Of a stretch of DNA of 64,000 nucleotides, positions 424 to 26,896 are shown piece by piece. Under the pieces are notes generated by a model that saw only the letters and a list, made by a program, of their open reading frames with translations, was not told the DNA's origin and did no database searches. A program made the position numbers and the translations under genes. Each line of letters begins with the position of its first letter. The first letter of the stretch is position 1. The stretch is from NCBI GenBank assembly GCA_030637745.1, contig DAOWFX010000043.1:3424-67423 (forward strand), in the 5' to 3' direction. This DNA comes from Clostridia bacterium (GTDB taxonomy: Bacteria > Bacillota > Clostridia > Christensenellales > UMGS416).

Positions 424-1614
424 TCATTTCTTGTATGTTTTCTTGCCTCGTTTTTCCATGTACCAGTTTGTAATAGGAAACAATAAGCGTATATACCATT
501 TGCTTGAAATAATATTCAATTGGTTTATAATATCAATGGATTGTGGGCAATGCTTTTCGCACTTTCCACACTGGATACATTCCCGTGCTTTATTGAGTGT
601 TTTCCCTGAAATTCCGATTTGCATAAGAGTTCCAAGAAAACCACCTGATGAGATATGGTTGTAGACTTCAAAGCAACGAGGAATATCAATTTCTTTTGGA
701 CAATCAATACAATATCCACAACCAGTACAAGGCACTTTGAAGCTCTTGACAAAGACATCAATGATTTCATCGATAACCACTTGCTCTTCTTCTTTGATTT
801 TTCCATCAATATCAGATGCAATTTCTAAATTATTTTCAATATGATCCTCATGACTCATCCCTGAGAGCACCACTGTAGCTTCTTTATGGTTCATTACCCA
901 AGATAAGAATAATTCAACTGGCGTCTTTTTTATCCCAGCTTTATCTATTAGATCAAGTACTTTCTGAGGAATATTGTTTGCTAACGCGCCACCGCGTAAG
1001 GGTTCCATAATAATGACAGGAATACCTTTCTTATTAGCATGAAGTAGACCATCTCTTCCTGCTTGATTGTTGATGTCTAAGATATTGTACTGTATCTGAC
1101 AAAAATCCCAGTCATAGTCGTCAACGATTTTGATGAAGTCGCTCTTTTCTCCGTGAAATGAAAACCCAACATTTTTTGCCTTGCCACTATCTTTGATAGA
1201 CTTTAGATATTCTTTTAGCCCCATATCACATAGGTTTTTATAATTTCCATAGCTTGTGAACATATGCATTAAGTAATAATCAATATAATCAGTATTTAAC
1301 TTTACTAGTTGCTTATTGATGTATTTATCAAAATCGTTCCTGTTTCTACATAACCAAATTGGAAGCTTTGTTGCCAGAAATATTTGATTTCTTAAACCGG
1401 TTTTCTTAAAAAAACGACCTAAGAAAGCTTCTGATTGTCCCGCATGATAGGGCCATGCAGTATCCAGGTAATTAACACCGCCATCGATTGCTTGCTTAAG
1501 CATTTGGGTAGAACGAACTTCATCGATTTTTCCATCTTTTTGAGGAAAACGCATACAGCCAAAGCCAAGGATAGAAAGTTGATCTTTGTTTCTTGTATTT
1601 TCTCTATAAATCAT
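424..1614 (-). CDS. aldo/keto reductase fused to a C-terminal 2x[4Fe-4S] ferredoxin-type domain
   Basis: 396 aa. N-terminal AKR signature (LGFGCMRF...GVNYLDTAWPYHAGQSE). Two CxxCxxCxxxCP clusters near the C-terminus (CTGCGYCIDCP, CIQCGKCEKHCP). A 4-nt overlap with the upstream aminotransferase gene suggests co-transcription. Confidence 0.85.
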   Translation of the reverse strand: MIYRENTRNKDQLSILGFGCMRFPQKDGKIDEVRSTQMLKQAIDGGVNYLDTAWPYHAGQSEAFLGRFFKKTGLRNQIFLATKLPIWLCRNRNDFDKYINKQLVKLNTDYIDYYLMHMFTSYGNYKNLCDMGLKEYLKSIKDSGKAKNVGFSFHGEKSDFIKIVDDYDWDFCQIQYNILDINNQAGRDGLLHANKKGIPVIIMEPLRGGALANNIPQKVLDLIDKAGIKKTPVELFLSWVMNHKEATVVLSGMSHEDHIENNLEIASDIDGKIKEEEQVVIDEIIDVFVKSFKVPCTGCGYCIDCPKEIDIPRCFEVYNHISSGGFLGTLMQIGISGKTLNKARECIQCGKCEKHCPQSIDIINQLNIISSKWYIRLLFPITNWYMEKRGKKTYKK

Positions 1615-23104: not shown

Positions 23105-23575
23105 ATGAACGGATATTATGGTGGACTTTTAGCAATCGGACTTTTCGGTGGATTTCTTGTATTCTTACTTGGAGCTGCTGCATATGTACTCACTGCAATC
23201 GGACTGTACAAAATGGCACAAAACCAGAACCTCGAAAACCCTTGGTTGGCGTGGATTCCCATCGCACAGTTTTATGTGGTAGGTGCATTGATTAAGGAAA
23301 TTAAACTCGGATCAACAACCATCCCACGCATGGAGCTTGTGCTTCCCTTGGGCGCACTTGCAGTAGCTGTTTTGAGCTGGATACCATTTATTGGCACATT
23401 GGTTGCTTTGGCATACTATGCATTGATGGTCTACTCACTGTATCTATTGTTCAAGCTCTATGTACCAAATGAAGCAGTATTGTATACCATACTTAGCGCA
23501 TTGGGACTATTTGCAATCTTCATTTTTATTATCAGAGATAAAGATCAAGTAGTAGTAGAAGCACCCCAGGAATAG
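23105..23575 (+). CDS. membrane protein, paralog A of a tandem pair
   Basis: 156 aa. GGAGG SD. Shares NPWLAWIPIAQFYVVGA and YVPNEAVLYTILSALGLFAIFIFIIRDK with the next gene. Confidence 0.65.
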   Translation: MNGYYGGLLAIGLFGGFLVFLLGAAAYVLTAIGLYKMAQNQNLENPWLAWIPIAQFYVVGALIKEIKLGSTTIPRMELVLPLGALAVAVLSWIPFIGTLVALAYYALMVYSLYLLFKLYVPNEAVLYTILSALGLFAIFIFIIRDKDQVVVEAPQE

Positions 23576-23625: not shown

Positions 23626-23653
23626 TACCTTAATGAATATTTTGGAGGTTTCA

Positions 23654-24208
23654 ATGGATAACACTTTTTTAGTTGGATTTGTAGCGGTGATGATAGTTGT
23701 ATTGTTTTTTGTTTTCGCCATTTCTTTAGTAATTTATATCCTACACTCTATTGGGCTTTACCGCCTTGCAAAAAATAAAGGCATGGATAATGCTTGGCTT
23801 GCATGGATTCCTATTGGAAACTATTATATTTTGGGAGCAGTTTCAAAACAATCTGCATATATGAAGAACAAGGTTCCAAAAGTTGAAGTTATATTACCTA
23901 TCGTGGGAGCAGTATATGTGGCGCTGTCTTTTGTTCCTGCAATCTTAAATACAATAAATTCTTTTTCAGGCTATTCATATAATAATTTATTGGGTATGGG
24001 AATATCAACATTACTAATAACTTTTCTTGGCTTATGCTTTACTGCGTTTATAACGTTTGTATATTATCATATATACAAAACATATGAGCCGAACAATGCA
24101 GTACTGTATACAATACTCAGTGTGTTTAGTCTTTCATTTATATTCATATTTGTGATACGCAACAAACAACCTGTATTGCCTATTGAAGGCGAATTAATTC
24201 AACAATAA
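23654..24208 (+). CDS. membrane protein, paralog B of a tandem pair
   Basis: Start moved to MDNTF (GGAGG 6 nt upstream). Shares NAWLAWIPIGNYYILGA and YEPNNAVLYTILSVFSLSFIFIFVIRNK with paralog A. Confidence 0.65.
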   Translation: MDNTFLVGFVAVMIVVLFFVFAISLVIYILHSIGLYRLAKNKGMDNAWLAWIPIGNYYILGAVSKQSAYMKNKVPKVEVILPIVGAVYVALSFVPAILNTINSFSGYSYNNLLGMGISTLLITFLGLCFTAFITFVYYHIYKTYEPNNAVLYTILSVFSLSFIFIFVIRNKQPVLPIEGELIQQ

Positions 24209-24235: not shown

Positions 24236-25933
24236 CTATATCTTTTCTCTTTCGTACAGTTTCTTAAATAGGATATCTTTATTGAGCAACTGTTTCATTG
24301 TTCCGGTATCTCGAAGATGACCATTATCAAGCAATAATATCTGATCAAACATATATGTAGTATGTACTTTATGTGTAACTGCAATCACAGTAGAGTCTGA
24401 GAGTGTATTAAGCACATTTTTCAAAATTATACTCTCGTTGATATTGTCTATTGCACTGGTTGCCTCATCAACTATTACGATTTTTGGTTGAGAGATTATA
24501 ATTCTTGCAAGTGCCAGACGTTGCTTTTCGCCTCCTGAAAGCATACTTCCTTTTTCACCTATTGGCTCATCCAATTTGCTCTTCTTTGATTTTATTTGAT
24601 CATATAGATTTACGTCTTTTAAAGCAGACCAAAGAACTTGATCATCTACTTTTTTATCAAAGACAAGGTTCTCTCTGATTGTACCGTCGAATATAGCAGG
24701 ATCTTGTGATAGATATGCGATATGCTTGTAATACGTGTTTAGGTTCATTTTGGTCAAGTCCTGATGATCGATGAATATTTTTCCGCTATTTGCTTTTAAT
24801 AAACCGGATATCAATCCCAGAATTGTGGTTTTCCCCACGCCACTTTGTCCGACAATAGCGTACGCTTTCCCATTTTCAAACATAAATGACATATTATCTA
24901 GTACAACATTTTGTCCATATTGAAAGGATAGATTCTCTAAAGATATATTTCCTTCTTTGATGGTAGCTACCTCTCCGGTTCCTATCATCTCATCATCAGG
25001 TTGATCTATCGGGTTTTCATATCTTTTAAAAGCAATTTTATTCAAGGTGTAATCAATATATACAACATTAAAGATTGCAATCGGTGTGTATACCCTGTCT
25101 ATAAGCGTTACTAAGGCGACAATAATACCGATACTTGAAGTGCCTGCGATGATCTGGTTTATTCCTATAAAAATTGCAATTATTTTTATTATTGCAACAA
25201 TAAATGCAAATGAAGTGAAGAACATTTCATGTGTCATTAATATTTTGGTTTTGGACTTCACAATCCTGATAGAGGTATCTTCACATTCTTTGATTTCTGT
25301 TTTATATTTTCTGTTGATTCTAAAAACTACCATTTCCATAAAGGCGCGTACTAACTTAGATGTGAATTTTTCTTCATTCATGAGAGTAGAATTCTTCACC
25401 AAGTAAAGCTTTTTGAGAAGAATTTTAGTTATCAGAAAAACAAACCCATAGCTTATTGCAATAGCGACCATGATTTTAAAGTCATATATTCCTATTAAAA
25501 CCATAGAAACTAACACACCGGGGATTATATTCCTAAAAACATTCAAATAGAAACTGAATAATATTTTTCTACCTGCATCAACACCATTTTCGACGAGTTG
25601 TATGATTTCACCGGTTCCGTACTGCTTGTATTGCAGAAAATCTATCTTGGATATCTTTTTTAGCGCGTTTAGCTTTAGTTGATAATAAAAACTATTGTTC
25701 AAGATGCTACTTGGATAGTTCTCAATATAGCCTAGTATATATTCTAGTATTTGCAAAAGACCAAACATACATAGATATCTCATGGCGTTTGATATATCCC
25801 CTGTCTTTCCAAGAGAATCAATGAGTTGTTGAAAACAAACGACCACCAAAGCTGATATGATAGTTTGTACTAGACCGTTTACTAGATATAAAGTCACCAT
25901 CTTTTTATATTTTGTTATACATTCTTTTAACAT
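24236..25933 (-). CDS. ABC exporter, fused permease and ATPase (half-transporter)
   Basis: 565 aa. Six-helix TMD followed by an NBD with Walker A GQSGVGKTT, signature LSGGEKQRLALAR and Walker B IVIVDEATSA. AGGAGG SD. Confidence 0.9.
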   Translation of the reverse strand: MLKECITKYKKMVTLYLVNGLVQTIISALVVVCFQQLIDSLGKTGDISNAMRYLCMFGLLQILEYILGYIENYPSSILNNSFYYQLKLNALKKISKIDFLQYKQYGTGEIIQLVENGVDAGRKILFSFYLNVFRNIIPGVLVSMVLIGIYDFKIMVAIAISYGFVFLITKILLKKLYLVKNSTLMNEEKFTSKLVRAFMEMVVFRINRKYKTEIKECEDTSIRIVKSKTKILMTHEMFFTSFAFIVAIIKIIAIFIGINQIIAGTSSIGIIVALVTLIDRVYTPIAIFNVVYIDYTLNKIAFKRYENPIDQPDDEMIGTGEVATIKEGNISLENLSFQYGQNVVLDNMSFMFENGKAYAIVGQSGVGKTTILGLISGLLKANSGKIFIDHQDLTKMNLNTYYKHIAYLSQDPAIFDGTIRENLVFDKKVDDQVLWSALKDVNLYDQIKSKKSKLDEPIGEKGSMLSGGEKQRLALARIIISQPKIVIVDEATSAIDNINESIILKNVLNTLSDSTVIAVTHKVHTTYMFDQILLLDNGHLRDTGTMKQLLNKDILFKKLYEREKI

Positions 25934-25956
25934 ATTTCCTCCTATTATACGTAATT

Positions 25957-25985
25957 AAAAACACTGCCAAACTAATACGGCAGTG
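25957..25985 (-). terminator. intrinsic terminator inside the 5' leader of the ABC exporter gene
   Basis: On the - strand: CACTGCC-gtattagttt-GGCAGTG followed by TTTTT. It ends about 20 nt before the AGGAGG SD of the exporter. Confidence 0.7.
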
Positions 25986-26193
25986 CTTTGTACACAAATA
26001 AGAGCTAAAATTAGCCCGTCAATTACTTATACAAACCAAATGGTTTGATGGCAATATGACTTTCTTCCCGTTTATAGTTTGCCTTAATTTTGAAAGATAA
26101 ACGGGAAATTACGTCGACGCATCATCCTAAGAAACAACATTATGGAACTCCTTACATAATATACATTTTAGTACAATCTTCATCTTATATCAA
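25957..26193 (-). promoter_or_regulatory. leader region: promoter, SD plus 18-codon leader ORF, hairpins and terminator (candidate translational attenuator)
   Basis: On the - strand: TTGATA (26193-26188), 17 nt, TAAAAT (26170-26165). AAGGAG (26153-26148), 7 nt, then ATG at 26140 encoding MLFLRMMRRRNFPFIFQN with stop at 26086-26084. The hairpin CCCGTTTAT...ATAAACGGG (26105-26067) has its 5' arm inside the last leader codons. The terminator at 25985-25957 follows. Confidence 0.55.
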
Positions 26194-26332
26194 CACTTTC
26201 TTGATAAAGTTTTATTAGCTAGTGATACATTTGATACCAATAAATTGATAGATAACAAAGGATGTACAGTACTCGTTAATATGGAAATATGTTTCAGTAG
26301 ACAGGTATTTTGCATCATGATAAAATGCATAT

Positions 26333-26896
26333 ATGATCAAAGTAAACTTCTCAGACTCGTTTTTGCTCGTACTTGCAATAGTCTCCACTATTGCATTATT
26401 TGTAGCCGTAAGAAAGTCGAATATCAAAAAACCGATTGTTATAACTGTTAGTATTACATATTTGATAATAATGCTGTTACTTACTTTACAGCCATTATTT
26501 ATATCCTCATACCGCATTTCATGGGATGAAATAAGACTATATGGCTTGCCAGCGAACTTAAAACCTTTTTCGCTGATAGCACAACAATGGCAGAACGTTC
26601 TTGCTGGGCAACAGGGTGCGTTCCGGCAGTTTTTTGGAAACATTATCATGTTCATCCCTGTTGGAATTTTGATGCCATTGCTATTTAAGAAAACGCAACG
26701 CTTTTGGCGAGCCCTTCTTGGAGCGTTTTTGTTTACTTTTACGATAGAAGCGTTACAGCTCATATTGTGCATAGCAGGAATGTGTTTAAGAGAGTTTGAT
26801 GTGGATGATTTGATACTCAACACTTTGGGTGCTATGTTGGGTCATGGAATCTATAAGATACTTTTTCATCATAGAAAAGCCAAAGTTGCTTTATGA
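26333..26896 (+). CDS. VanZ-family membrane protein
   Basis: 187 aa. GNIIMFIPVGILMP and DVDDLILNTLGAMLGHGIY are typical VanZ motifs. No SD; TAAAAT lies 6 nt upstream of the ATG. Confidence 0.75.
   Translation: MIKVNFSDSFLLVLAIVSTIALFVAVRKSNIKKPIVITVSITYLIIMLLLTLQPLFISSYRISWDEIRLYGLPANLKPFSLIAQQWQNVLAGQQGAFRQFFGNIIMFIPVGILMPLLFKKTQRFWRALLGAFLFTFTIEALQLILCIAGMCLREFDVDDLILNTLGAMLGHGIYKILFHHRKAKVAL

Follow-up and report, generated by a model that had tools for sequence, protein, structure and literature searches.

The exporter gene and its leader

The subject of this analysis is a gene for an ATP-binding cassette (ABC) exporter and the 5' leader in front of it, which lie on the minus strand of a 64,000-nucleotide (nt) stretch of a Clostridia genome (contig DAOWFX010000043.1 of assembly GCA_030637745.1; this whole stretch is referred to as the window). 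The leader holds a short upstream open reading frame (uORF), a series of hairpins and an intrinsic terminator, and is probably a ribosome-dependent transcription attenuator of the single exporter gene. In many Gram-positive bacteria, leader-peptide attenuators keep resistance genes off until the ribosome comes under attack; to our knowledge, very few such devices have been described ahead of membrane ABC exporters, and bmrCD is the textbook case. The following features were assigned, SD denoting a Shine-Dalgarno sequence and bp base pairs:

26193-26188 and 26170-26165 (-): promoter-like hexamers, -35 TTGATA and -10 TAAAAT, separated by a 17-nt spacer and matching the consensus at 10 of 12 positions
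26153-26148 (-): SD of the uORF, AAGGAG, 7 nt 5' of the ATG at 26140
26140-26084 (-): uORF of 18 codons plus stop, MLFLRMMRRRNFPFIFQN, read from the sequence and kept as a class in the orthologues
26102..26119 (-): codon box CGU-CGA-CGU-AAU-UUC-CCG, the orthologue consensus being an A-rich codon followed by CGA, NNU, AAY/AUC, NNC and UCR/CCG, from the orthologue alignment on CGA, codon usage and a background control
26107-26097 with 26075-26065 (-): hairpin 1, 11 bp, UUCCCGUUUAU with AUAAACGGGAA, a candidate anti-antiterminator
26081-26068 (-): segment 2, CAAACUAUAAACGG, the loop and 3' arm of hairpin 1, forming the 5' strand of the predicted antiterminator
26047-26042 with 26037-26032 (-): hairpin 2, CAAACC with GGUUUG and the loop AUUU, from the sequence and the leader fold
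26017-26002 (-): hairpin 3, GGGCUAAUUUUAGCUC, followed by TTATTT at 26001-25996, from the sequence and the leader fold
25957..25989 (-): intrinsic terminator, with the core CACUGCC (25985-25979) and GGCAGUG (25968-25962) and a tract of five U (25961-25957)
25980-25968 (-): CCGUAUUAGUUUG, the end of the terminator 5' arm, the loop and the first G of the 3' arm, forming the 3' strand of the predicted antiterminator
25931..25943 (-): exporter SD AGGAGG (25943-25938), four further nucleotides (N4) and the ATG at 25933
25933-24236 (-): ABC exporter gene, 565 amino acids (aa), homodimer-type, with the transmembrane domain (TMD) and nucleotide-binding domain (NBD) fused, assigned by Pfam (ABC_membrane PF00664 and ABC_tran PF00005)
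24231-24212 (-): terminator directly 3' of the exporter gene, an 8-bp stem with 5 GC pairs, from the terminator scan

The hexamers, both SD-ATG pairs, the uORF, hairpins 1 and 2 and the leader terminator had been listed in an earlier note made on this DNA from the sequence, and all of them were found in their places on the minus strand. The list was nevertheless incomplete, as hairpin 3 with its TTATTT and the antiterminator pairing had been missed, and the stem of hairpin 1, given there as 9 bp, extends to 11 bp. The 5' arm of this hairpin consists of uORF codons 12-15 and the uORF stop codon sits in its loop. The terminator lies 95 nt 3' of that stop codon and in its extended form has a 12-bp stem, a loop of 8-10 nt and a free energy of -17.1 kcal/mol; it was not listed by a simple consensus scan because its 10-nt loop exceeded the limit of the scan. 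Promoter-like hexamer pairs were found in the AT-rich stretch at chance density (22 as compared with 23.2 expected), and the promoter call is therefore backed by position alone. When the 241-nt leader was folded, a minimum free energy (MFE) of -65 kcal/mol was obtained, against -46.9 +/- 4.5 kcal/mol for dinucleotide shuffles (z = -4.02), and 0 of 200 shuffles were as stable.

No NCBIfam family cut-off was reached by the exporter, and its best solved structural relatives are ABCB1-type transporters. Since its own terminator comes at once after the gene, the exporter forms a single-gene unit. Among the candidates scored, its family numbers at least 2,114 database proteins in Clostridia at E <= 1e-80, which carry generic names only, and the leader offers a functional lead for this uncharacterised and widespread family.

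Conservation of the uORF and its codon box

Orthologous loci were collected using the exporter as the query. The search of species-representative contigs identified one relative (L001), the search of viral contigs none, and a lone NBD match of 25% identity among metagenome contigs was set aside. Within the window's order, whole-genome searches recovered the exporter in 12 of 401 genomes sampled and, in a further search made with a TMD-only profile, in 10 of 286, the latter adding no new locus. In a class-wide sample the exporter was present in 2 of 399 genomes, the window's own included, and the TMD-only profile gave the same result; 3-5 candidates were scored per genome in these large class-wide searches, and the extra match that they yielded (L022/L024) is cut by the contig end, with its upstream DNA missing. 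The resulting comparison set, including L001, encompasses 13 loci with upstream DNA, at 36-43% identity to the window protein and with an upstream GC content of 31-61%. A homologue of 38% identity on plasmid pMP1 of the honey-bee pathogen Melissococcus plutonius (L033, 1790-2476) was an outlier, and no uORF-box leader was found in its AT-rich upstream region of 690 nt.

For each locus, the 350 nt upstream of the exporter gene were examined for an SD-preceded ORF of 5-30 codons containing an in-frame CGA-NNT-A. The earlier note had made its reading depend on conservation of the small ORF in orthologous loci, and such uORFs were indeed found in 9 of the 13 loci, as compared with 0 in a background of 113,476 nt elsewhere in the loci, both strands considered. 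The 4,550 nt of upstream DNA hold 10 uORFs in these 9 loci because L021 carries two tandem units. In a tenth locus, L001, a variant uORF, MRLKLGKYSVQLI, was aligned at the same place and has CUC-GGU-AAA in the box. The number of codons ahead of the box varies from 2 to 8, with the box nonetheless in frame with the start codon; the uORFs are 10-23 codons in length and their C-terminal halves have no common sequence. The tandem arrangement in L021 (3273-3532, minus strand) consists of two full units before one exporter gene, each with an SD, a 10-codon uORF (encoding MFKRCNYHTA and MLKRCNSLAA), a helix and a U-tract hairpin, and recalls tandem riboswitches.

Alignment of the leaders on CGA yielded the box [AAA/AAG/CAA/CAG/ACA/AUG/CGU]-CGA-NNU-[AAC/AAU/AUC]-NNC-[UCR/CCG/CUK], which as a peptide reads roughly K/Q-R-x-N/I-x-S/P/L. 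Arginine at the box position is encoded by CGA in 8 of the 8 leader-bearing lineages that have it there, and among the 12 aligned leaders 11 have U in the third position of the codon after CGA and all 12 have C in that of the codon after Asn/Ile, although CGA makes up 0-11% of the Arg codons of the adjacent exporter genes and T-ending codons 3-15% of the codons in high-GC loci. As judged from these alignments, the constraint on the box acts on codons, beyond amino acids alone, and, because the leaders are homologous, the similarity of the boxes is to be read as retention through a divergence that erased all else rather than as independent origin. The conserved part is one particular codon triplet and not a peptide, which gives a testable handle on decoding speed as opposed to peptide chemistry.

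Conservation at the level of nucleotides, with CGA and the U-ending codon retained in spite of the codon usage of the neighbouring genes, is also what speaks for an element acting as RNA only, in which the ACGA-NNU-AAC box and the helix would bind a small molecule, a protein or a small RNA and the uORF would be incidental. The same may be said of L018, where the box is present without an SD, and of L001, where GGUAA is kept yet both amino acids are altered. Such an element is nevertheless unlikely, as 9 of the 13 loci combine a suitably spaced SD and start codon with an in-frame box despite the variable number of codons before it, the conserved stretch of just 9-15 nt is too little for an aptamer and the box mostly stays unpaired in the MFE structures. 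Searches with Rfam covariance models returned no match for the window leader at E <= 10 and none for 10 orthologous loci at E <= 0.1. Moreover, the 11-mer of the box is not over-represented in the genomes of five relatives, where 175 matches were counted as compared with 207 for a reversed-pattern control, and none of the 9 copies inspected among the ~175 (repeats of the 11-mers of known leaders) is leader-like. The window's own genome was scanned for further leaders, and no second convincing one was found in it; a candidate on contig C41 overlaps the start of a 744-aa ORF, with its supposed terminator in coding sequence, and was taken as chance.

In the window, the box contains three consecutive Arg codons, CGU-CGA-CGU, all served by one tRNA. 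The genome (G000, 87% complete) yielded 26 tRNAs, among them tRNA-Arg with the anticodons ACG, CCG, CCU and UCU and none with UCG, and by the decoding rules CGA is therefore read by the inosine tRNA-Arg through I-A wobble. In a Salmonella his-leader assay, CGA is slow, and is the slowest codon of its tRNA (PMC4046918). The slow translation of CGA and the missing UCG anticodon are in keeping with a ribosome that lingers on the box. The slowness, the invariant Arg codon, the window's run of codons on one tRNA and the Arg-rich leaders also speak for an attenuator of amino-acid supply, similar to trpL and hisL, whose uORF would sense charged tRNA-Arg (perhaps tRNA-Asn) and whose pump would answer arginine limitation or an inhibitor of arginyl-tRNA synthetase, not a ribosome-binding drug. 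However, the boxes of the orthologues hold a single CGA and no run, L001 has CUC in place of the Arg codon, and the target, an ABCB-type exporter, has no biosynthetic genes beside it, which makes a sensor of arginine supply distinctly unlikely. Frameshifting by -1 or +1 at AAA-CGA onto an out-of-frame UAA was also considered, and was rejected because L019 and L020 are without the UAA and L003 and L006 without the slippery codon.

The conservation of codons points, on the aligned sequences, to decoding speed at CGA-NNU. We tentatively suggest, as a possibility and not as the expected outcome, that the box works through slow decoding of its codons rather than through arrest by the nascent peptide, and that the leader measures the decoding capacity of the A-site. 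The rare CGA, read by the inosine-adenosine wobble of tRNA-Arg(ICG), and the U-ending wobble codon after it would then be placed exactly one ribosome footprint 5' of the decision helix, and the signal could be charged or inosine-modified tRNA-Arg, or A-site inhibitors such as tetracyclines, not a drug of the exit tunnel. If true, this efflux attenuator would sense by a distinct principle, and sensor and pump would be passed on jointly, as a mobile single-gene cassette, among Clostridia families.

Leader folding and ribosome position

Ten leaders were folded, and in each of them the MFE structure contained a helix with its 5' strand starting between 7 and 16 nt (7-14 nt in most) past the C of CGA, a geometry in which the base of the helix lies at the mRNA entrance of a ribosome with CGA in its A- or P-site. 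The sequences of these helices are unrelated between loci, the structure being conserved and the sequence fully turned over. Over the 80 nt counted from CGA, z values between -2.4 and -5.7 were obtained for 7 of the 10 leaders (z = -3.39 for the window).

The presence of a ribosome was mimicked by masking a 28-nt footprint codon by codon. For a window transcript ending at the terminator loop, hairpin 1 was lost with the P-site at codons 8-16 and the MFE structure paired CAAACUAUAAACGG with CCGUAUUAGUUUG, hairpins 2 and 3 being placed at the apex of this antiterminator conformer. When the transcript was extended to include the core terminator stem, the antiterminator was still the MFE structure at P-sites 11-15. 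The duplex between segment 2 and the terminator has a free energy of -15.5 kcal/mol, a value that 58 of 2000 dinucleotide shuffles of segment 2 and 44 of 9140 genomic 20-mers attain. U-tract terminators were also found in L005, L006, L020 and L021, and in the first three of these the 5' strand of the basal terminator helix lies inside the uORF, 4-6 nt past the box. The pairing probability of this basal helix was ~0.98 with the P-site one codon before CGA, 0.46-0.74 at CGA and 0 at the next codon, and remained 0 for ~10 codons; in these loci the anti-termination window therefore opens at the box.

From these elements we infer translation of the uORF, a ribosome stall, control by kinetics and an inducer, which would act together as follows. 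Transcription would start ~18 nt 5' of the uORF ATG. In the uninduced state, hairpin 1 would form and sequester segment 2, the terminator would fold and RNA polymerase would halt ~200 nt into the transcript; a ribosome at the stop codon would cover segment 2 too, such that the terminator would still fold. Under induction, a ribosome slowed on CGU-CGA-CGU-AAU (codons 8-11), or up to about codon 16, would mask the 5' arm of hairpin 1, and the freed segment 2 would pair with the terminator 5'-arm end and loop before the 3' arm exists, allowing the polymerase to continue into the exporter gene. Hairpin 3 with the TTATTT motif may, by analogy with vmlR, be a NusG-type pause hairpin and motif, and such a pause may synchronise polymerase and ribosome. 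The sensor would be the box itself, through its rare, wobble-read CGA and U-ending codon one ribosome footprint 5' of the helix. Peptides as short as those of the uORFs would stay within the tunnel, which leaves the ribosome as the place where the signal has to act, and the inducer is most likely a compound that slows decoding or peptide-bond formation, for example a ribosome-targeting antibiotic that would in turn be exported by the pump.

Several observations weigh against an attenuator of this kind. With the full terminator and U-tract of the window present at equilibrium, the terminator kept a probability of 0.99-1.00 at every ribosome position; because of this dominance a thermodynamic switch is excluded and kinetics are required. 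The significance of the antiterminator is modest, as ~3% of shuffles reach it, and the segment-2 duplex weakens to -9.2 kcal/mol once the first G of the 3' arm is left out, a value that 481 of 2000 shuffles attain. In three leaders, L020 and the two L021 units, folding is no better than in shuffles (z = -0.95, +0.47 and -1.03). L007 and L016 have no leader, the apparent ORF of L016 falling in the promoter spacer, and the box of L018, lacking an SD, may lie 5' of the transcription start. In L001, L003/L004, L017 and L019 no hairpin is directly followed by a U-tract, and in the MFE folds of L003 a strong hairpin over the exporter SD was insensitive to ribosome position; in these loci the output step may be translational. 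In addition, the box was defined after inspection of the data, the homologous leaders are not independent draws, and no RNA sequencing run is listed for the window stretch. Ribosome-mediated attenuation, as proposed in the earlier note, came through the computational tests applied and gains from the conserved uORF, the helix that follows it and the predicted antiterminator, but has to accommodate an equilibrium terminator at a probability of ~1 regardless of the ribosome. The folding of the leader with and without a ribosome footprint that it called for gave a predicted antiterminator on truncated transcripts and none with the full terminator at equilibrium.

The thermodynamic dominance of the terminator in every equilibrium fold would suit a terminator that merely insulates the exporter from upstream transcription or, alternatively, a uORF encoding a functional micropeptide, in either case with no conditional control. 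Both are highly improbable. The uORFs span 10-23 codons and share no sequence in their C-terminal halves, peptides of this size would not exit the ribosome tunnel as a folded product, and an unconditional terminator between the promoter and the sole gene would silence that gene, whereas the presence of two complete units in tandem in L021 fits a regulatory device.

Two long-range pairings were also seen in the full-length leader of the window. The box sequence ACGUAAUU (26109-26116) is complementary to AAUUACGU (25956-25949) just 3' of the U-tract, and in the MFE fold uORF codons 2-4, UGUUUCUU (26129-26136), pair with the exporter SD region, AGGAAAUA (25934-25941). As modelled, these pairings could add a translational layer. 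Pairing of the box with a downstream partner was considered as a general feature (ACGUAAUU with AAUUACGU in the window, UAACCG with CGGUUA in L003) and was rejected, as examination by eye found no equivalent in L005 and L006.

Related attenuators, exporter history and neighbouring genes

The mechanism class of the leader is that of the ribosome-mediated attenuators, which includes bmrB-bmrCD, vmlR, tlrB, msrD and the trp and his leaders; this logic has been demonstrated by experiment for bmrB-bmrCD (PMC4191407) and for vmlR (PMC9226507). BmrB is a 53-codon leader ORF containing the terminator and placed before the heterodimer exporter pair bmrCD, which is under AbrB control; bmrCD induction needs leader translation, and rare codons in the leader tune read-through (PMC4191407). 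The leader described here resembles it in the leader ORF, the alternative stem-loops, the intrinsic terminator and the ABCB-type exporter, and the overlap of terminator and leader ORF seen in BmrB recurs in L005, L006 and L020 (PMC4191407). However, the uORF has 18 codons in the window (10-23 in the orthologues) and precedes a single homodimer-type gene, and one codon box is conserved here whereas five rare codons were tested collectively in BmrB (PMC4191407). By its length, the position of its terminator and its single gene, the leader is set apart from the BmrB family proper as that family is described, so that the match to BmrB drawn in the earlier note holds for the mechanism and fails for the family.

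The vmlR leader contains an anti-antiterminator with a uORF, a pause hairpin with the NusG motif TTNTTT and a terminator (PMC9226507). The order of elements is the same in the window, including TTATTT after the middle hairpin and the SD of the gene in last position, and the stalling on the uORF that frees the antiterminator in vmlR is predicted here (PMC9226507). In contrast, the vmlR uORF has 3 codons and responds to initiation-stage inhibitors, whereas the present box, at codons 3-11, would report on the elongation stage; the target of the vmlR leader is an ABC-F ribosome-protection factor, as opposed to a membrane exporter with a putative pause (PMC9226507).

Macrolide arrest leaders are exemplified by the RYR motif of tlrB, cited in PMC9226507, and by the Arg-Leu-Arg leaders cited in PMC8632094. 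ErmDL and MsrA have leaders of this kind as well. In most of the leaders studied here a basic residue stands ahead of the box Arg, and the R/K-x-R/K pattern of the macrolide leaders is present in 4 of 10: R8-R9-R10 (RRR) in the window, just 5' of the helix, and similarly RKR in L017, RTK in L020 and MRLK in L001. It is absent from L003/L004, L005, L006, L019 and L021, and the conserved feature is CGA-NNU-AAY, not a basic pair. With trpL and hisL the leader shares the 1:2 / 2:3 / 3:4 hairpin logic, segment 1 being located in the uORF and segment 2 being covered by a ribosome at the stop codon, and differs from them in that the orthologues have no run of cognate codons and no biosynthetic operon lies downstream. 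Full-text searches, with subscription journals and supplements outside their coverage, returned no description of the leader or the codon box, and the leader family seems to be undescribed.

The leader defines a family in which pump and sensor travel together through several families of one Clostridia order. A tree of the exporters has a star-like shape, 6 of its 11 inner branches being open, and is not ordered by host family; with weak support, it places leaderless loci among leader-bearing ones. On these sequences, the history of the exporter fits an ancestral leader with occasional loss and some horizontal movement. The flanks of 11 orthologous loci (~1.5 kb, 33 flanking ORFs) differ at every locus and encode, among others, Rce1-like, NUDIX, GNAT, MatE, Fur, LacI, GH2, alanine symporter and rhomboid families. 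As no family is common to these flanks, the leader and the exporter form a self-contained unit. In the window, the divergent gene is VanZ-like (Pfam, 2.8e-25), which the earlier note had taken as support for a drug- or peptide-responsive efflux locus; VanZ was found near the orthologous exporters in 0 of the 11 loci, and its presence adds nothing to the argument.

The VanZ-like gene (plus strand, 26298-26335) has no visible SD and is apparently leaderless or almost so, as an extended -10 element, TGATAAAAT, ends at 26326, with the -35 TAGACA, 6 nt before the ATG at 26333. In L019, a gene convergent to the exporter (751-1200, plus strand) encodes a 150-aa protein of the cytidine/adenosine-deaminase fold, which may be a tRNA adenosine deaminase making inosine-34; a link to the CGA box is probably coincidental. 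Two adjacent genes of the window (23105-23575 and 23633-24208, plus strand) converge on the exporter gene and encode paralogous small membrane proteins, which gave no Pfam or NCBIfam match and share the motif (D/E)N(P/A)WLAWIPI...Y..GA.

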